64,000 nt of DNA. Source: an uncultured Ruminococcus sp. Lineage in GTDB: Bacteria > Bacillota > Clostridia > Oscillospirales > CAG-382. This document shows, one piece after another, positions 6,051-52,878 of this stretch. The notes below the pieces were generated by a model. The model was not told where the DNA came from and ran no database searches. It worked only from the letters and a program-made list of their open reading frames with translations. Each line of letters starts with the position of its first letter. The stretch's first letter is position 1. The position numbers and the translations under genes were made by a program. Where the stretch lies: positions 92-64,091 of the forward strand of contig CAZHBX010000001.1 in assembly GCA_964530795.1 (NCBI GenBank), in the 5' to 3' direction.

Positions 6051-8624
<2,574 letters not shown>

Positions 8625-45632: not shown

Positions 45633-47411
45633 TCAGTCCGCCTTGAATTCGCCGGTATAGGAGCCAACCGTGACCGTGTAAGTCTCGCCTTTGGTCAGTT
45701 CGGGCAGGCTAAGGATGACCACCGCGTAGGGCAGCGACGGTTCGACGGTCAGCAGGATCTCCCCGCCGTCCCGCAGGACGATCTGCGTTCCGGCGGGCTG
45801 GTTCCCGACTTGCAGGGCGATAACCCCCTGCGACGAACCGCTGAATGTCTGCGCCATTCCGGCGCCGCCCGTTCCGACGAACCGACCGCCCGTGATTACG
45901 CCGCCGGTGTCAAAATCCAGCGCGGCGGTGTCACCCTCCGTCGGGCCGGTAACCGTCACGTCTCCGCCGGAGATCTCCAGCGAGCCATTCACATCAATCC
46001 CGTCGCCGTAAGCGACGATCGAAACCGTCCCGCCGGAAATAACGACCGAGCCGTCGGAGGAGCCGCCCGGTCCGCCGCCCGGTCCGCGCCCGCCGCCGAA
46101 GCCGAAGCCGCTTTCGTCCGTGCCGCCCGCCGCGTTGATGCCGTCGTCGTCCGCTGTCAGTTGAATCTCCCCGCCGGTGACGAGCACGTGCAGCCCTTCG
46201 ATCCCTTCGTAGCTATTCTCGACGCGAATGGTCCCGCCGGTCACGGTCAGGGCCTCGTCTGCATGAAAGCCATCGTCCCCGGTCAAAATCGTGAACGTCC
46301 CGCCGGCGACCGTCACATCGCCGTTGGAATGCACGGCGTCGTCGGCGCTGTCGAGTGCGAACGTCCCGCCGGCGAGCAGCAGCCCGCCGTCCGCTTTGAT
46401 CGCCTTTGTACTCTCCGTCGAATCGGTATCGGTCGAGGAGGTCACAGCGCGATTCCAGCCGGACCCGCCGAAACCGCCGGACGCATGCTGCGGACCGTTT
46501 TCGTGCCCGCCGCCGGACGTGACCGTCACGTCCCCGCCGGACACCCCCAGTGCGCCGCTCGCGCTGATCCCATCGCCGTCCGACACGACGGACAGCGAAC
46601 CGTCGGCGAGGTAGAAGTACCCGAGCGTCTCGTCACCCTCGTTCTCGACGTGGACGCCGTCCTTGCCGGTCTCCAGCACAAGTGCGGCGCCGTCGATGCG
46701 GACGCTGTCGTTCACATCAAATCCGTGCGAACCCGCCCGAACGGTATAGGTTCCGCCGGTAAGCACCAGGTCGTCCTTGCAGACCACCCCGTGCCCGCCC
46801 GGAGAAGTTACGGTCAGGCGGCCCGCGCCGTTGCAGGTCAGGTCCTGCTTGGAGAACAACACCCCGTCGATGCTGTCCCCATCGTCTGAAACGAAGGAAC
46901 CGCCGTTTGACAGAGTGTTCTCGCTGTCCTCCGCGAGCGTGATAAACACCTTGTCCGCCTCGCGGATGTACAGGGCGGCGGACGCGGAGCTGTTGACGTT
47001 CACCCCGTCGAGCACCAGCTGCAATTGATCGTTTTCCCCCGCGTCGACGAGAATCTGCCCATTGTCGAGCGTACCGGACAGGACGTAGGTTCCCTCGGCC
47101 CTGATCGTCACGGTTCCGCCGTCCACCGTCACGTCTTTGCTGTCACATTCCGCCGTCAAGCCTTGCAGCAGGATCCGCACGGCGTCCCCGTCGTCGTAGG
47201 ACGTGCGGCGGTCGCGGTCGGTGAATAGCGCGGCTTCGTCCCACGAAACCGCGCCCGAAAGGGTCCCCGAAACCGCGTCCGCTCCGCCATCGCCCGCCAA
47301 ACCTGCCGATTCCGCCGACGTGTCCTGCGAATGCGACTGCGCCTTCCCCGCCCCGCAGGCGGTGAGCAGTCCCGCCGCAAGCAGCAGCGACAGGAGCGCC
47401 TGCTTCTTCAT
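45633..47411 (-). CDS. Lipoprotein with Gly/Asp-rich parallel beta-helix repeats (Cthe_2159-like carbohydrate-binding family, tentative)
   Basis: ATG 47411 lies 8 nt after GGAGG. The signal peptide has the lipobox LLTAC. Many repeats of the form GG.V.V.SG.DGI/GGT.T. are present. Confidence 0.7.
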   Translation of the reverse strand: MKKQALLSLLLAAGLLTACGAGKAQSHSQDTSAESAGLAGDGGADAVSGTLSGAVSWDEAALFTDRDRRTSYDDGDAVRILLQGLTAECDSKDVTVDGGTVTIRAEGTYVLSGTLDNGQILVDAGENDQLQLVLDGVNVNSSASAALYIREADKVFITLAEDSENTLSNGGSFVSDDGDSIDGVLFSKQDLTCNGAGRLTVTSPGGHGVVCKDDLVLTGGTYTVRAGSHGFDVNDSVRIDGAALVLETGKDGVHVENEGDETLGYFYLADGSLSVVSDGDGISASGALGVSGGDVTVTSGGGHENGPQHASGGFGGSGWNRAVTSSTDTDSTESTKAIKADGGLLLAGGTFALDSADDAVHSNGDVTVAGGTFTILTGDDGFHADEALTVTGGTIRVENSYEGIEGLHVLVTGGEIQLTADDDGINAAGGTDESGFGFGGGRGPGGGPGGSSDGSVVISGGTVSIVAYGDGIDVNGSLEISGGDVTVTGPTEGDTAALDFDTGGVITGGRFVGTGGAGMAQTFSGSSQGVIALQVGNQPAGTQIVLRDGGEILLTVEPSLPYAVVILSLPELTKGETYTVTVGSYTGEFKAD

Positions 47412-47545
47412 ATGCCATGCCTCCCCGTTGGTTTTTCTTTGAGTATATGCTATAAAAATGAAACGTTTCGGTCGGAAAACGTGAATTTTTTGCAGATTAT
47501 TTTGAACAAACCGTAAATCCTTTCTCCGCCCGGACGCCTTCCGGC

Positions 47546-47574
47546 TTGACAAGGCGAGGGGATTGTGCTATGAT
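47546..47574 (+). promoter_or_regulatory. Sigma-A type promoter of the ABC-like gene
   Basis: TTGACA (47546-47551), 17-nt spacer, TGcTATGAT (47566-47574). The track ORF start at 47546 is the -35 box itself. Confidence 0.75.
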
Positions 47575-47596: not shown

Positions 47597-48232
47597 ATGA
47601 AGTCCGTACAGTCGCTCGAAATCACCCTGCGGCAGGGGCGGGTGTTCTGCAAATCCGCGTTCTATACCGCGTCGGACGGCTTTGACGCGGAGATCCGCTA
47701 CACCTTCACGCCGGGGATCCATCGGTTGATCGGAGACATCGATTCCGGAGTGTGGGCGGTCAGCTATCTGCTGTCCATGTACTGCCATACCCCGAAGTGC
47801 TTCTCCATGTTCGAACCGCCGGAAGTAACGGTGAACGGGAATGCGCTGTCCCTCGAGGAATTCGCTCGCTTCGCCTGCTACCTCGATAAGTCCTACCCGC
47901 TCTTCGCGAAAACCGCGCCGGTGTGCCGGCTGATCCAGAACGGCCTGCGCAGGACTCGCTCGAAACAGTCGCCGGAGGAGGTGCGGGAGCTTTTCGGCAT
48001 CTCCTCCGAGCGGTTCGACCGCCCGCTGTCCGATATGGGGGACGAACTGCTGCAGGCGATGGTCTCCGTGGCGTACAGCCAGAGGAAGGACGTTTTCTGC
48101 TTCCCGTGGATGAGTGAAAAGCGCCTTTCGGAGGTCCGCGAGAAGCTGCCGACGCTGCTCGACACCCTCGAGAGGTTGGGAAAAATCGTGCTGCTGCCCG
48201 TCGGTTCGCAGGCGGAAAAGCTGCTTCCGTAA
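47597..48232 (+). CDS. Stand-alone ABC-ATPase-like protein with degenerate catalytic motifs
   Basis: AAGGGAGGA RBS then ATG 47597. The layout matches an ABC nucleotide-binding domain, but Walker A reads GDIDSGVWAVS, the signature reads LSDMGDE and Walker B reads VFCFPWMSE. Confidence 0.55.
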   Translation: MKSVQSLEITLRQGRVFCKSAFYTASDGFDAEIRYTFTPGIHRLIGDIDSGVWAVSYLLSMYCHTPKCFSMFEPPEVTVNGNALSLEEFARFACYLDKSYPLFAKTAPVCRLIQNGLRRTRSKQSPEEVRELFGISSERFDRPLSDMGDELLQAMVSVAYSQRKDVFCFPWMSEKRLSEVREKLPTLLDTLERLGKIVLLPVGSQAEKLLP

Positions 48233-48399: not shown

Positions 48400-48790
48400 A
48401 TCGCCCACACGCAGCGAAGCCCGGCCATTCCAGCGTTTCGGCGTGCTGCGGAACGCCGAAATTGTTCCGGTGTCGGTCCTCGTTTGCAAGGTAAAGTTCA
48501 AGTCGTTTCCCTCGTTTCGTTTGGCACTCCTGCCGGACAGCGCCTTTTTCAAAACGCGAAGCTCCGCCTGCAAATCCTTGCGTTTTTCTATTTTTCGGAC
48601 AGCGGTTCGATCTCTTCATCGTGCAGATACCGGCTCTGCTTAACGCCGCCCTGTGACCATTGATGGTAGTAATAGGTTTTTCCGCTGATGGTTTTTTTGC
48701 GAAGCCGTCAATAGCGAGTCCGCGCGTCCGCGCGGCAAAAGCTGTGCTTTTGTGCTTTGCGGCAGCAAAGCTGCGATGCTATTCTACCCT
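48400..48790 (-). pseudogene. Decayed gene remnants, including a HipA-type kinase catalytic-loop motif
   Basis: One frame reads ..KKTISGKTYYYHQWSQGGVKQSRYLHDEEIEPLSEK and then stops. A +1 shift continues as IEKRKDLQAELRVLKKAL. A third frame reads LYLANEDRHRNNFGV (48455-48484), matching the D-x-H-x-x-N-F motif of HipA-family kinases. No intact ORF is present. Confidence 0.35.
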
Positions 48791-48849
48791 GTTTTAACCC
48801 CTTTTGTCAATGGCATAACAGCAGGAGTCAAGAAAATTTCCATACGATT

Positions 48850-49116
48850 ATGAAGACTGCAGGAATCAAGGGCAGCTCCCACAAAAACGGCTCGCCCAAT
48901 ACGCTGGCGGATGGGTTTATCAGGGGCGCGAAAGATGCCGGGCATGAGATCTTAGAATTGGACGCAGCGCACATGGATATCCATCCGTGTCCCGGATGTA
49001 AGCACCGCGGGATGGACGGTCCCTGCGCATAGAAGGATGACATAGAAAAGATCCGGGATGCGCTGCTTTTTTCCGATGGGGTGACAGAATGGGCGGACGG
49101 CCTTGGCATTCAGTGA
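48850..49116 (+). pseudogene. Truncated flavodoxin-like FMN reductase / iron-sulfur flavoprotein gene
   Basis: MKTAGIKGSSHKNGSPNTLADGFIRGAKDAGHEILELD...PCPGCKHRGMDGPC matches the N-terminus of this family. There is an in-frame TAG at 49030, and homology ends after ..KDDIEKIRDALLFSDG. Confidence 0.55.
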
Positions 49117-49129
49117 AGGAGTAGCATGA

Positions 49130-51664
49130 ATGAAGCAACCAAAACAGATGATCAGACGAATTGTTGACTTGTGCATGGTCATCCTTCTGCCGCTTTTGAT
49201 GGCGGAAGTCCTGATCGGACAGGAAATCCACGAATGGCTCGGGACGGGAATGCTGGTTTTGTTTATCGCCCACCACGTTCTAAATGTTGGCTGGTGGAAA
49301 ACTCTCTTCAAAGGGAGATATACGCCGTCCCGCTGCTTTGGCGTGTCCCTCGACCTGCTGCTCCTTTTGGATATTATAGCTTTAGGCGTAAGCGGGATCA
49401 TGCTGTCCGGCTTTGTCTTTGACTTTCTCCCCATAAGCGGAGGGATGGCAGTCGCGAGAAAACTTCACCTCTTTGCCTCTTACTGGGGGCTGATCCTGAT
49501 GTCGGCGCACCTGGGACTGCATATGGAAATGCTCATAGGAGTCGGAAGGAAGCTGTTCCATATTTCAGGAAAGGGCGTGGCAAGGAAGTGGATTTTACGC
49601 GCACTCGCCGCGTCAGTATGCGCTTATGGCATTTACGCCTTTGCCAGCCAACGCATCTGGGACTATCTGTTCCTGCGGACGCATTTCGTGATGTTTGACG
49701 AGACAAAGACGGCGGTCGTCTACTTTGCCGAAACCGCCGCTATGATTGTGCTTTTCGCGGCGGCCGCGCACTACCTGAACAAACTTTTACGCCTTATGGG
49801 AAAGAAATCCGAAAAGAAGCAATTGAATGGAACGGCATGGAAAATATGCGCGTTCGCCGTTCCCGTGCTTGTTTGTGCGCTTGTGATTGCGGGGTTCAAT
49901 ATGCCATCGCGAAATTTGCCGTGGCAAAGCAAACCTGCCGAGCCTCCGACAAACAGCAATCTTGAACAAACCGCGGATGTGCAGGACGGATTTGTACTGA
50001 TAAAAGGCGACAGTTATAAAATGGGAAGCCCGAAGGATGAGCCGTGGCGCTCCGGCGATGAGGCACAGCACACTGTGACAGTGAGCGATTTCTATATCAG
50101 CCCCTATGAGGTCAGGCAAAGCGACTATGAATCGGTCACGGGAGAAAATCCTTCCAATTTTGCCGGAGATAACCTCCCCGTTGAAAACGTGTCGTGGCTG
50201 GACGCCATTGCTTACTGCAACGCGCTAAGCGAGAAGGAAAACCTCACGCCCGCCTATGCCGTGGACGGGCAGACTGTCACATGGGACAGGAGCGCGAACG
50301 GCTACCGTCTGCCCACCGAGGCGGAATGGGAATACGCCTGCCGCGCCGGGACGGCGACGCCGTTTAATACCGAAACCTCCATCGGCCCGGAGGAATCCAA
50401 CTATTATGGACATTACCCCTACGAGATCGAGAACAACTATTTTTCCCAAGGGAACCTTTCGACAAAGCCGGGCGAATACAGGCAGACGACGGTCGCCGTG
50501 GACAGTTTCTCCCCAAACGCCTGGGGGCTTTACAATATGCACGGCAACGTCAGCGAATGGGTGTGGGATTTCTACGGCGAATATGACATGTCCGACACCG
50601 CCGACCCCACAGGTCCTGAAACAGGGACGCGCCGCGTCTACCGGGGCGGCGGCTGGAACGATTTCGCCAAGAATCTGCGCTCTGCCTACCGTGCCACTCT
50701 GCCGGAGGATAAAGGCAGCTTCAACCTCGGCATCCGCCTTGTGCGGAACGCTGTGAACGGCGCGGGAAGTGTCACTACTTCCGGAACAGAAAATGAAACG
50801 GCAGATGGCGGAAAGGTATTGATTGCCTTCTTCTCTTGGGGCGGAAACACCAGAGGGATCGCGGAAGAAATCCAATCGCAGACCGGGGCGGATCTCTTTG
50901 AGATCGAGCTTGTCAATCCCTATTCAACCGACTACAACACCGTACTCGACCAGGCACAGCACGACCAGAACATCCAGGCGAGGCCGGAGATCAAAAACCA
51001 TGCGGAGAATTTTGAACAGTATGACACCATCCTCTTAGGCTATCCAAACTGGTGGGCGTCCATTCCCATGCCGATTGCCTCATTTTTAGAGGCGTATGAC
51101 TTTTCGGGCAAGACGATCATCCCGTTCTGCTCCCACGGGGGAGGGCGTTTCGGGCAGAGCCTGACGGCGATCGCCAAGCTGGCCCCTGATGCCGATATAG
51201 GCGAGCCGCTGTCTATCCATTACTCCGGCGGAAGCACACTGCCGGACGACATTGCAGACTGGCTGAAAGCAAATCGTATCCATGAAGGAGAGGAGGAAAA
51301 CGCTATGATGCAGATGAAAATCGGCGATACCGTAGTTTCGGTGGACTGGGAAAACAACACATCCGTGGAAGCATTGAGAGCACTGTGCGCAGATCATCCC
51401 CTGGAGATTCCGATGTCTATGTATGGCGGTTTTGAGCAGGTGGGTTCTCTCGGGCAGAACCTGCCGAATAGTGATTCGCAGATAACCACAGCCGCGGGAG
51501 ACATCGTCCTGTATTCCGGCGATCAGATTGTCGTGTTTTACGGATCGAATACGTGGTCCTACACCCGGCTTGGCAGGATTACGGACAAAACAAAAGACGA
51601 AATGGCAAAGCTTCTTTCCGGCGGCGATGTGACCGTCACGATAGCGGGGGGCAACATGGAATGA
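49130..51664 (+). CDS. Multidomain fusion: polytopic membrane domain (DUF4405-like) - SUMF1/FGE-like domain - flavodoxin-like domain - cyclophilin-like domain
   Basis: Seven hydrophobic segments by eye (aa 10-260). The SUMF1/FGE fold shows YRLPTEAEWEYACRAG, GLYNMHGNVSEWVWD and RVYRGGGW. The flavodoxin_4-like module shows VLIAFFSWGGNTRGIAEEI and ILLGYPNWWASIP. The C-terminal ~115 aa form a cyclophilin-like module (GDIVLYSGDQIVVFYG). Confidence 0.8.
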   Translation: MKQPKQMIRRIVDLCMVILLPLLMAEVLIGQEIHEWLGTGMLVLFIAHHVLNVGWWKTLFKGRYTPSRCFGVSLDLLLLLDIIALGVSGIMLSGFVFDFLPISGGMAVARKLHLFASYWGLILMSAHLGLHMEMLIGVGRKLFHISGKGVARKWILRALAASVCAYGIYAFASQRIWDYLFLRTHFVMFDETKTAVVYFAETAAMIVLFAAAAHYLNKLLRLMGKKSEKKQLNGTAWKICAFAVPVLVCALVIAGFNMPSRNLPWQSKPAEPPTNSNLEQTADVQDGFVLIKGDSYKMGSPKDEPWRSGDEAQHTVTVSDFYISPYEVRQSDYESVTGENPSNFAGDNLPVENVSWLDAIAYCNALSEKENLTPAYAVDGQTVTWDRSANGYRLPTEAEWEYACRAGTATPFNTETSIGPEESNYYGHYPYEIENNYFSQGNLSTKPGEYRQTTVAVDSFSPNAWGLYNMHGNVSEWVWDFYGEYDMSDTADPTGPETGTRRVYRGGGWNDFAKNLRSAYRATLPEDKGSFNLGIRLVRNAVNGAGSVTTSGTENETADGGKVLIAFFSWGGNTRGIAEEIQSQTGADLFEIELVNPYSTDYNTVLDQAQHDQNIQARPEIKNHAENFEQYDTILLGYPNWWASIPMPIASFLEAYDFSGKTIIPFCSHGGGRFGQSLTAIAKLAPDADIGEPLSIHYSGGSTLPDDIADWLKANRIHEGEEENAMMQMKIGDTVVSVDWENNTSVEALRALCADHPLEIPMSMYGGFEQVGSLGQNLPNSDSQITTAAGDIVLYSGDQIVVFYGSNTWSYTRLGRITDKTKDEMAKLLSGGDVTVTIAGGNME

Positions 51665-51709
51665 AACAGCGGGACAGTCTTTGAAAAAAACAATGAAGAT
51701 ATTTCAAAG

Positions 51710-51943
51710 GTGTTTTTCACCTTCGATATCAGCGCCGAGGGCATGGTGAAAGTGTATGGGGCTCTCGGCTGGAAACCGGAGGGAAAAGTCGCGGTGAAGC
51801 TTTCCACTGGGGAACCGCCGGCGAGCAATTATCTGCGTCCGGAACTGATTCAAGATGTTGTGCAAACCGCGGACGGGACGATCGTAGCGTGCAATACGGC
51901 ATACGGCGGCTCCCGCGCGGGTATGTTCCCGCCTTTCCGGTAG
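51710..51943 (+). pseudogene. N-terminal fragment of a DUF362-family gene
   Basis: FFTFDISAEGMVKVYGALGWKPEGKVAVKLSTGEPPASNYLRPELIQDVVQTADGTIVACNTAYGGSR matches the DUF362 N-terminus. The frame ends after 77 aa, whereas the family is normally over 300 aa. Confidence 0.5.
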
Positions 51944-52232
51944 TCAAGGCTTATCCCGCACGGCGCGCAGGGCAGAATCCGCCCGATTCGATTGTTTTGC
52001 ACCCAAATGCGCCACGTTGCGCCCAACCCGCACCCAATGCCCCCAAACTGGGTGCCAACGTGTGTTTGTATCAATCTCAATGGGGAACTTCCCATATAAT
52101 CCCTTTAGGAATCGCAGAATGAACGGCCTTAGACAATGTATATCCATCGATCCATGACCATTCCGAAGAAAATGCAGAACGGTCGTATTCGGCAAATACG
52201 GCTCGGGGCAACGCCCACCCTTCGCCTCCATG

Positions 52233-52290: not shown

Positions 52291-52878
52291 TTACTCCGCC
52301 GGGGCTTCCCCCTCTTTCGGGGCTTCCCCCTCTTTCGGGGCTTCCCCCTCTTTCGGGGCTTCCTCCTCCGCCGGGGCCTCCTCCGCCGGGGCTTCTTCCC
52401 TCGGGGTTTCCACTTTCGACTCTTCGGACTTCTTGGCCTTCTTGGCCTTCTTGGCGGCCTTCTTCGCCGCCTTCGCGTCCGCCTTTTCTTCCTTCTTGTC
52501 CTTCTTGTCCTTCTTCGGGGCGTAGTAGCTTTCCGCGTCCACCAGCTCGATGAGCGCCATTTCCGCGCCGTCTCCGCGGCGCGGACCCAGCTTCAGAACC
52601 CGCGTGTAACCGCCGTTCCGCGCCTCATACAGCGGCGCAACGAACGTGAAGAGCTTGTAAACCGCTTCCTCCTTCTTCAGGAACGCGAGCGCCTGACGGC
52701 GGGAAGCCAACGTGTTCTGCTTGCCAAGCGTAATCATCTTGTCGGTCAACGCACTGACTTCCTTCGCGCGGGTATATGTCGTTTCGATGCGACCCGTTTC
52801 CAGCAGGAACGTCACCATGCCTTTGAGCATCGCCATCCTGTGGGACGTGGGTCTGCCTAACTTTCTTGTTCCGGGCAT
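52291..52878 (-). CDS. rplQ: 50S ribosomal protein L17 with a ~80-aa Lys/Ala/Glu/Pro-rich C-terminal extension
   Basis: Canonical L17 core ([15 protein letters not shown]...[24 protein letters not shown]) followed by [29 protein letters not shown]...[23 protein letters not shown]. Confidence 0.9.
52301..52354. repeat. Three perfect 18-bp tandem repeats inside the rplQ 3' end
   Basis: GGGGCTTCCCCCTCTTTC x3 (52301-52318, 52319-52336, 52337-52354), followed by degenerate copies up to about 52400. They encode (EAPKEG)n on the minus strand. Confidence 0.95.

Follow-up and report, generated by a model that had tools for sequence, protein, structure and literature searches.

A single gene at 49130–51664 on the plus strand of a 64,000-nucleotide stretch of DNA from an uncultured Ruminococcus sp. 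(GenBank assembly GCA_964530795.1, contig CAZHBX010000001.1, positions 92 to 64,091; the whole stretch is referred to here as the window) encodes an 844-residue protein in which a DUF4405 membrane module, an additional seventh transmembrane (TM) helix, a domain with the fold of the formylglycine-generating enzyme (FGE), a Flavodoxin_4 domain, and a Cyclophil_like2 domain are joined in one chain. We consider that this protein is probably a single-chain transmembrane electron conduit, leading from the cytoplasm to a reaction outside the cell. The observations that carry this reading are the identities of the domains, the topology, the pattern of conserved histidines in the membrane module, and the collinearity of the protein with the products of two adjacent genes of a split operon. 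A first-pass annotation of the same DNA had speculated that a His-rich membrane module passes electrons to an external flavin domain, a suggestion that matches the published association of heme b-containing DUF4405 proteins with exported Flavodoxin_4 (PMC11334425). Coordinates are those of the window and refer to the plus strand unless indicated otherwise; homologous loci and proteins are designated by L and P numbers.

Domain Organization

The gene is one uninterrupted open reading frame (ORF) of 844 codons, preceded by a Shine-Dalgarno-like GAAGGAG (49115–49121) located 8 nucleotides 5' of the ATG; a scan of the locus for promoters and terminators gave no signal above background or shuffled sequence. 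Four Pfam-A domains are present, each exceeding its gathering score: DUF4405 (PF14358; residues 74–131, E 8.8e-9, 36.2 bits versus a cut-off of 26.7), FGE-sulfatase (residues 286–539, E 3.2e-44, with the profile matched over its full length), Flavodoxin_4 (PF12682; residues 562–693, E 2.3e-26, 92.6 bits versus a cut-off of 24), and Cyclophil_like2 (PF18050; residues 729–838, E 7.1e-21, 74.8 bits versus a cut-off of 22.7). The view of the first-pass annotation that one intact gene joins these four modules is thereby confirmed, and every profile that it had named was matched. The NCBIfam results are consistent with those from Pfam, PRK06934 and PRK07116 matching the flavodoxin, and GldK, PvdO, and EgtB giving partial, sub-threshold matches to the FGE fold. 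An ORF of this length with such E-values cannot arise by chance. In the first homology search, more than 7000 sequences were matched at E ≤1e-5.

The Membrane Module and Predicted Heme Ligands

Kyte-Doolittle hydropathy and two AlphaFold2 runs agree on seven helices, at residues ~4–29, 31–58, 66–92, 106–142, 150–173, 195–232, and 238–257, bearing out the seven hydrophobic segments that had been counted by eye. The TM region has predicted local distance difference test (pLDDT) values of 75–95 in the full-length model, and the membrane module modeled alone has a pLDDT of 90 and a predicted template modeling score (pTM) of 0.84. When residues 1–262 were used as a query against 1.84 billion representative proteins, 3054 related clusters (50% identity) were found, and most of the top-scoring relatives are stand-alone proteins of ~220–235 residues that align with residues 5–225, that is, with TM1–TM6 only. 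The DUF4405 protein of locus L092 is of this type, its residues 2–226 aligning by BLASTP with residues 5–230 of the window protein at 45% identity. Stand-alone DUF4405 proteins have no TM7, which is an additional helix, and the Pfam match, the stand-alone relatives, the AlphaFold2 models, and the L092 alignment together delimit a six-TM, DUF4405-type cytochrome b core (residues 1–237, 49130–49840), whose termini are both predicted to be cytoplasmic.

In 97 relatives with 32–60% identity, the only invariant columns are His34, Gly38, His48, His113, His127, and Gly129. The same four histidines are conserved in at least 98% of 120 close homologs, in which His49 (73%) and His131 (87%) are more weakly conserved. 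Thus, of the conserved histidine motifs singled out by the first-pass annotation, His48 and His127 are truly conserved, but their neighbors His49 and His131 are less so, and His34 and His113 had been missed. The invariant histidines form two pairs, on TM2 and TM4, each spaced by 14 residues. Two pairs of histidines at such a spacing are the classical signature of two b-hemes with bis-His ligation that are stacked across the membrane, and the pattern in the window protein is of this di-heme cytochrome b type, from which the heme sites are predicted. Because of the N-in topology deduced below, His34 (codon 49229–49231, outer end of TM2) and His113 (49466–49468, TM4) would be ligands of a heme near the outer face of the membrane, and His48 (49271–49273, inner end of TM2) and His127 (49508–49510, TM4) ligands of a heme near the inner face. 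In a search of PDB sequences with the family profile, cytochrome b of the bc1 complex appeared at a non-significant E of 0.6, with the segment Arg110-x-x-His113…His127-x-Gly129 aligned with its heme-ligand helix B.

These predictions agree with earlier work on the family. DUF4405 was predicted to be cytochrome b-like by Makarova et al. in 2015 (PMC5898192), and a DUF4405 protein from Oscillospiraceae, MBD5117352.1, purifies with heme b (mSystems 2024, PMC11334425). The latter study presented a six-TM model of DUF4405 with four central histidines and described its clustering with apbE and exported Flavodoxin_4 proteins.

Topology of the Soluble Domains

The assignment of everything after TM7 to the outside of the cell (Nin-Cout), which the first-pass annotation had proposed, is well supported by four independent lines of comparison. 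The basic N terminus and Lys-rich loop after TM6 on which that proposal was based are present, and the pattern is kept in 59 homologs, in which Lys and Arg together average 3.8 in the N terminus, 3.4 in loop 2–3, 4.5 in loop 4–5, and 5.3 in loop 6–7, and 0.1, 0.7, and 1.3 in the remaining three loops. TM7 is followed by a Pro/Ser/Glu-rich tether (residues 258–285, 49901–49984; pLDDT <50), predicted to be extracytoplasmic, which is acidic and variable in length among the homologs (mean Asp plus Glu 7.4 versus mean Lys plus Arg 1.7).

The second line is that close relatives of the soluble domains carry export signals. The FGE-flavodoxin unit, at 69–70% identity, occurs as a lipoprotein with the lipobox LAAC or LSAC in L009 and L092; one such protein, 70% identical and from a Lachnospiraceae metagenome-assembled genome, has a lipobox in its N-terminal sequence, MKRVTAIFLSIILAVSLAACGQ; the very common FGE-flavodoxin proteins of ~490–500 residues (P0263, P0324) likewise bear a lipobox; and in P0107 a signal anchor precedes the same unit. 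The closest relatives of the Cyclophil_like2 domain, with 70–77% identity, are mostly stand-alone lipoproteins. In addition, a gene for a lipoprotein Flavodoxin_4 with a long low-complexity tether lies directly upstream at every homolog locus examined (L002, L004, L009, and L092), so that an outside location, which the earlier comment called unusual for a flavodoxin fold, is not that unusual in these bacteria.

Thirdly, other DUF4405 proteins have recognizable extracytosolic domains at the corresponding C-terminal position. P0422 is a DUF4405-TM7-FMN_bind fusion bearing the canonical ApbE motif DAVSGAT, and in P0465, P0470, and P0428 TM7 is followed by a Flavodoxin_4 domain with a flavinylation insertion (D-S-V-S-S-A-S). 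The ApbE motif of FMN_bind and the flavinylation insertion of Flavodoxin_4 are markers of an extracytosolic location (PMC8238504, PMC11334425), and because these domains occupy the same position in DUF4405 relatives, the part of the window protein that follows TM7 is predicted to be outside.

The Split Operon and the Origin of TM7

The fourth line comes from loci L092–L095, in which MerR is followed, in order, by a Flavodoxin_4 lipoprotein, DUF4405 (226 residues), lipoprotein FGE-Flavodoxin_4 (501 residues), AKR-Fer4 (an aldo/keto reductase (AKR) with a 4Fe-4S domain), and CMD-cupin. The occurrence of modules as separate neighboring genes, which the first-pass annotation had put forward as worth looking for, is thus found for the DUF4405 and FGE-flavodoxin parts. 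P0324, the lipoprotein of the split operon, appears in 151 blocks of the collection. The stop codon of the DUF4405 gene overlaps the start codon of the next gene as ATGA (the two genes lie at 8324–10506 of L092; also in L093–L095), which suggests translational coupling of the two genes, and a one-base change at this overlap would recreate the fused architecture.

By BLASTP, the DUF4405 protein and the lipoprotein of the split operon, placed end to end, are collinear with the window protein. Residues 3–501 of the lipoprotein align with residues 238–717 of the window protein at 69% identity, and this alignment begins within the signal peptide, MKKICAFLLSAAMLFTLSAC of the lipoprotein corresponding to WKICAFAVPVLVCALVIAGF of the window protein. 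TM7 (residues 238–257, KICAFAVPVLVCALVIAGF, 49841–49900) thus appears, because the alignment starts inside the signal peptide, to be a fossil lipoprotein signal peptide that has lost its lipobox and, no longer cleaved, anchors the chain in the in-to-out sense. A signal peptide inserts with its N terminus inside and its C terminus outside; the alignment therefore supports the same orientation for TM7.

The Flavodoxin Domain

In Foldseek searches the model of the flavodoxin domain (residues 562–716, 50813–51277) matched 4ICI and FMN-bound 3KLB with TM-scores of 0.85 and 0.80, respectively (FMN, flavin mononucleotide). Its alignment with these two proteins is gapless through the β1-loop-α1 region at ~33% identity; relative to them, the window flavodoxin has no β1-α1 insertion. 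The FMN loops SWGGNT, YPNWW, and CSHGGG are invariant in the alignment of 59 homologs. Since both the insertion and the Ser/Thr motif used by ApbE are absent, the domain is assigned to a non-covalent FMN type, and it is therefore predicted, from the sequence and the model, to be an exported flavodoxin that binds FMN in this way. ApbE is encoded ~2 kb downstream only in L004–L006.

The FGE-like Domain

The FGE-sulfatase-fold domain (residues 286–539, 49985–50746) matches TvpA, FGE, PorK, and PvdO among PDB sequences. Aligned with human FGE, the domain has a gap at the catalytic Cys336 and Ala513 at Cys341; because this catalytic, copper-binding pair is absent, the domain is judged on its sequence to be no true FGE, and the identification as FGE, for which the fold is present, was rejected, in agreement with the doubt expressed in the first-pass annotation. 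An identity as a sulfoxide synthase of the EgtB/OvoA type was also rejected, the EgtB and SenA matches being partial and far under their cut-offs, and Pfam and NCBIfam scans found no DinB-like iron-binding domain preceding the FGE-like domain.

The position of the Cys-containing active-site loop of FGE is occupied by the signature loop WNDFAKNLRSAYR (residues 509–521, 50654–50692), in which Trp509, Asn510, Asp511, Phe512, Ala513, Lys514, Asn515, Arg517, Ser518, Tyr520, and Arg521 are invariant in the 59 homologs. Among 90 fetched loci, the motif WNDFAKNxRSAYR is limited to this family from gut Clostridia, and other non-FGE relatives read RGGSW......CRSAxR at the loop. Because the invariant loop lies at the former active-site position, it suggests a functional site. 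A scan of genome contigs with the family alignment was swamped by generic FGE domains, since LPTEAEWE is found superfamily-wide, and only L009 and L023 were relevant. It may also be mentioned that P0500 (441 residues) consists of DUF4405-TM7 and the start of an FGE-like domain (GFVLIPGGSFMMGSPD), after which the sequence continues directly with the mid-part of the flavodoxin; it looks like an internal-deletion variant or pseudogene of the three-module family.

The Cyclophilin-like Domain and the Four-module Fusion

The close homologs among the matches listed (57–80% identity) are three-module proteins of ~730 residues that end just past the flavodoxin. The sequence at which the cyclophilin-like domain (residues 729–838, 51314–51643) is joined to the flavodoxin (residues 717–728, IHEGEEENAMMQ, 51278–51313) nevertheless recurs, as GEEEN-x-x-M-x-MKIG, in P0107, P0262/L096, and P0277, all of which are from other samples. 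P0107 consists of a signal anchor, FGE, flavodoxin, and cyclophilin-like domain, is 74% identical, and was called within a 5.8-kb contig; P0262/L096 has 83% nucleotide identity and is collinear from residue 314 as far as the stop codon, a distance of 1.6 kb that contains assembly frameshifts; and P0277 is a lipoprotein flavodoxin fused to a cyclophilin-like domain. The recurrence of the junction speaks against an artefact of assembly or frameshift, which the first-pass annotation had named as a danger, and so the four-module fusion appears genuine but rare. By Rosetta-stone logic, it also suggests that Cyclophil_like2 lipoproteins are functionally linked to exported flavodoxins.

The junction sequence matches the end of the tether in stand-alone Cyclophil_like2 lipoproteins. 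The idea that MMQMKIG preserves the start codon of what was once a gene of its own was rejected: stand-alone lipoproteins have …EEMQMKIG inside the mature linker, and because of this it is more likely that the fusion came about when the signal peptide, together with most of the linker, was deleted. No solved structure for the cyclophilin-like domain was found by PDB sequence search and no description of the function of Cyclophil_like2 in literature searches. Some stand-alone Cyclophil_like2 lipoproteins (P0216, in L090 and L091) have no flavodoxin nearby, their neighbors being two esterases, a hexapeptide transferase, and a LysR regulator; because of this different context, the domain may not be restricted to redox systems.

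Proposed Mechanism

We infer in which direction electrons flow, what donates and what accepts them, and any catalytic part played by the FGE-like and cyclophilin-like domains from the comparisons above and from the genes found near homologs. The six-helix DUF4405 core would bind two b-hemes, one near the cytoplasmic face (His48/His127) and one near the outer face (His34/His113), and would be supplied with electrons by an NAD(P)H-linked reductase of the cytoplasm, for which FMN_red and the AKR with a 4Fe-4S domain in homologous operons are candidates. Electrons would pass from the inner to the outer heme and then, the chain having been led outside by TM7, to the non-covalent FMN of the tethered external flavodoxin. 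The terminal reduction may take place at the FGE-fold domain, in which the WNDFAKNxRSAYR loop replaces the cysteine loop of FGE, or with a substrate that is held there, and the cyclophilin-like domain, elsewhere a separate lipoprotein, would probably assist this step. A separate lipoprotein flavodoxin is possibly an alternative terminal acceptor.

The neighbors that recur at homolog loci are a MerR, TetR, or LysR regulator, aldo/keto reductases (one with a 4Fe-4S domain), FMN_red, CMD-cupin, and the lipoprotein flavodoxin. The MerR regulator of a homolog operon matches NmlR at E 2e-10, with a sub-threshold score of 40.7 bits versus a cut-off of 175. Because the homologous operons are headed by MerR (weakly NmlR-like), TetR, or LysR regulators and encode AKR and CMD-cupin proteins, a role in an inducible, extracytoplasmic, reductive defense against oxidants or electrophiles is likely, as opposed to one in energy-conserving respiration. 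A more specific proposal, which must be regarded as tentative, is that the FGE-fold WNDFAKNxRSAYR domain is the catalytic center of an unrecognized class of flavin-fed, extracytoplasmic redox enzymes, powered by the di-heme DUF4405 module and acting, when the cell is stressed by electrophiles or oxidants, on a small molecule outside the cell or a target on its surface, with the cyclophilin-like lipoprotein as a substrate-handling partner.

Alternative Interpretations

The alternative that survives best retains the conduit but makes the FGE-like and cyclophilin-like domains non-catalytic, as spacers, as ligand-binding domains, or as modules that dock the flavodoxin to the cytochrome or the cell wall; the flavodoxin would then itself, through its FMN, be the terminal reductant of soluble acceptors such as O2, quinones, Fe(III) chelates, or free flavins. 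A number of proteins with the FGE fold have a structural or non-enzymatic role, among them PorK/GldK, which are among the best matches, and many relatives fuse DUF4405 straight to Flavodoxin_4 or FMN_bind with no FGE-like domain; because such direct fusions exist, this domain appears dispensable for the electron hand-off itself. DUF4405 relatives, namely FezC and PepSY-like proteins, have also been linked to iron redox chemistry (PMC11334425). However, the most strongly conserved segment of the family falls exactly at the active-site loop of FGE, and the FGE-flavodoxin pair has been kept together in seven-TM, lipoprotein, and signal-anchor formats. This alternative is possible, but we regard it as doubtful.

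The gene may instead be a relic, left stranded not long ago by the decay of a mobile island, and non-functional whatever its relatives do. Directly upstream is a pseudogene for FMN_red, an NAD(P)H-dependent FMN reductase (48850–49086; residues 1–79 of ~177, with an in-frame TAG at 49031–49033), identified by tblastn at 61% identity to the intact FMN_red of L007 and by Pfam (E 1.6e-4). Directly downstream is a fragment of a DUF362 gene (51686–51919; residues 67–144 of 360), identified by tblastn at 69% identity to the DUF362 protein of L002 and having no Pfam match by itself. These remnants mark a decayed island. The GC content at 48500–52000 is 0.51–0.57, compared with ~0.59–0.68 in most flanking windows, and this is consistent with horizontally acquired DNA beside a ribosomal cluster, the locus adjoining rplQ-rpoA-rpsD-rpsK-rpsM-infA-map-adk-secY; integrase or Mob genes lie next to some homolog loci. 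Against these indications, together with the absence of operon partners and the singleton status discussed below, it should be noted that the 2.5-kb ORF is intact and has a good Shine-Dalgarno sequence, that all columns invariant in the 59 homologs are kept in the window protein, and that the ratio of nonsynonymous to synonymous substitutions (dN/dS; Nei-Gojobori method) relative to homologous genes is 0.05–0.13 for every module, values that are approximate since synonymous sites are near saturation, the cyclophilin-like domain having been compared with P0107. The dN/dS values show, within this approximation, that the 844-residue protein is under purifying selection. Partner genes may also be located elsewhere in the genome, of which 64 kb of a 102-kb contig were examined, and it is unlikely that the gene is a relic.

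A reversal of the flow, in which the external FGE-like/flavodoxin unit oxidizes a substrate and the hemes pass the electrons inward to a cytoplasmic acceptor, finds an argument in PvdO, a periplasmic FGE-fold protein named "dihydropyoverdine dehydrogenase" in NCBIfam, which gives a full-length match at E 1.3e-18, and in the reversibility, in principle, of heme wires. It appears distinctly improbable, since the cytoplasmic neighbors FMN_red, AKR, and AKR-Fer4 are NAD(P)H-type reductases, suggesting donors, and the characterized analogues export electrons (PMC11334425, PMC8238504). Finally, an ordinary membrane-tethered flavoprotein with its soluble domains in the cytoplasm, from an even effective number of TM helices or an Nout orientation, can be entertained insofar as the Nin-Cout topology is deduced, but it has very little to commend it, given the seven helices seen by hydropathy and AlphaFold2, the positive-inside census in 59 homologs, the homology of TM7 with a lipoprotein signal peptide, the lipoprotein versions of all three soluble domains, and the ApbE motif at the matching position of the FMN_bind fusion.

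Several points weigh against the conduit as proposed. Heme b binding was shown by others for a DUF4405 relative and is predicted for the window protein, as is FMN binding. A Foldseek search of the PDB with the TM-only model (pLDDT 90) gave no match better than E ~1, and because of this the likeness to MsrQ and PepSY-like cytochromes rests on PMC11334425. Extracytosolic Flavodoxin_4 proteins typically carry a covalent flavinylation site (PMC11334425), a generalization from which the window flavodoxin departs: a regular-expression search found no flavinylation motif ([DN]xx[ST][GS][AS][ST]) in the window protein, the motif being present in its relatives P0465, P0470, and P0428 (in the flavodoxin) and P0422 (in FMN_bind), and tblastn with the ApbE of L004 found no apbE in the window. 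In the full-length AlphaFold2 model, pLDDT is <50 over most of both the FGE-like and the cyclophilin-like domain, and no active-site or inter-domain geometry can be read from it. The partners expected at the locus are missing or broken, tblastn finding no AKR, CMD-cupin, MerR, or lipoprotein flavodoxin gene in the window, and FMN_red and DUF362 being represented by the pseudogene and the fragment; at 90% identity, the exact four-module protein clusters with no other and is thus a singleton; and the stress-defense role rests only on the annotations of neighbors and the sub-threshold NmlR match.

Other Features near the Locus

The ribosomal protein L17 encoded by rplQ (52291–52878, minus strand) has 195 residues, which we take to be unusually long, with a long Lys/Ala/Glu-rich C-terminal tail; an 18-nucleotide tandem repeat in the region encoding the tail (52300–52368; 3.8 copies, 98% matches) gives the peptide GEAPKE three times. 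The minus strand at 45633–47552 encodes a predicted lipoprotein of large size, MKKQALLSLLLAAGLLTACGAG, in which numerous Gly/Asp/Thr-rich repeats look like a β-helix, and at 47597–48232 (plus strand) is an ORF of 211 residues, a putative gene with no Pfam match that is overlapped by long antisense ORFs.

Relationship to Known Systems

The nearest known systems are the clusters of DUF4405 with ApbE-flavinylated Flavodoxin_4 described by the Light laboratory (PMC11334425), which share PF14358 and PF12682, the six-TM core, the four conserved histidines, and the exported flavodoxin, and include an example from an Oscillospiraceae bacterium, of the same bacterial group as the window; the rpsD of the window falls in a 90% cluster with one named member, which is from an Oscillospiraceae metagenome-assembled genome. 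They differ in that the modules of the window protein are one polypeptide joined through the extra TM7, in that its flavodoxin has no β1-α1 insertion carrying the flavinylated Ser and apbE is absent from the window, and in that an FGE-fold domain is interposed and a cyclophilin-like domain appended. The first-pass annotation had allowed that the architecture might already be characterized; the pairing of cytochrome and flavodoxin was indeed published in 2024, but neither PMC11334425 nor other searchable literature mentions the FGE-like and cyclophilin-like modules, and no description of an FGE-flavodoxin combination was found there either. Listeria-type flavin-based extracellular electron transfer (Ndh2, EetA/B, PplA, FmnB/ApbE; PMC8238504) is likewise an export of electrons to a lipid- or membrane-anchored extracytoplasmic flavoprotein in Firmicutes, but it is heme-free, employing quinone and EetA/B, with covalent FMN on FMN_bind, whereas the window protein has a flavodoxin fold that lacks the flavinylation motif, and a predicted heme wire.

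The window protein keeps the motifs HxVxV, LPTEAEWEYA, GNVxEW, and RGGxW of the FGE-sulfatase superfamily (SUMF1, PvdO, PorK/GldK, the C-terminal domain of EgtB, and Treponema denticola TvpA) but has neither the catalytic cysteines, nor a DinB/EgtB iron domain, nor nearby sulfatase genes, and its WNDFAKNxRSAYR loop is family-specific. Bacteroides 3KLB and 4ICI, FMN-bound structures from structural genomics, are the best matches to the flavodoxin in both sequence and structure and have the same FMN loops without the insertion; they are small stand-alone proteins, whereas the window flavodoxin appears to be tethered outside the cell to a cytochrome. The MsrQ-MsrP system of Escherichia coli, also cited in PMC11334425, belongs to a stress response: a heme b membrane protein transfers electrons from a cytoplasmic flavin reductase, Fre, to an enzyme located outside the cytoplasm. 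The electron route proposed here would be the same, but there is neither a sequence relationship nor one detectable by Foldseek, the partner in the window protein is a flavodoxin with an FGE-like domain as opposed to the molybdoenzyme MsrP, and bacteria of the window type are Gram-positive and have no periplasm.

As far as the searchable literature shows, the FGE-fold partner with its signature loop, the flavinylation-free exported flavodoxin, the cyclophilin-like fusion, and the conversion of a signal peptide into TM7 are new. The last of these is a clear example of topology preserved through gene fusion. The study of extracytosolic electron transfer in Gram-positive gut bacteria is still young; the DUF4405 cytochrome was recognized only in 2024, in the context of ApbE flavinylation. 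The present locus points to a large sister branch, in which a DUF4405 cytochrome is combined, by fusion or through overlapping genes, with a non-flavinylated exported flavodoxin and an FGE-fold domain, and which provides a concrete set of proteins for the study of heme-to-flavin electron export. It would offer a counter-example to the idea that covalent flavin is required in exported flavoproteins, and the redox partner gives a first functional handle on Cyclophil_like2 and on one branch of the non-FGE proteins annotated as "SUMF1/EgtB/PvdO family." If the tentative catalytic proposal is true, this class of enzymes would be abundant in the Lachnospiraceae and Oscillospiraceae of the human and animal gut and would represent a flavodoxin system that operates outside the cytosol with no covalent flavinylation.

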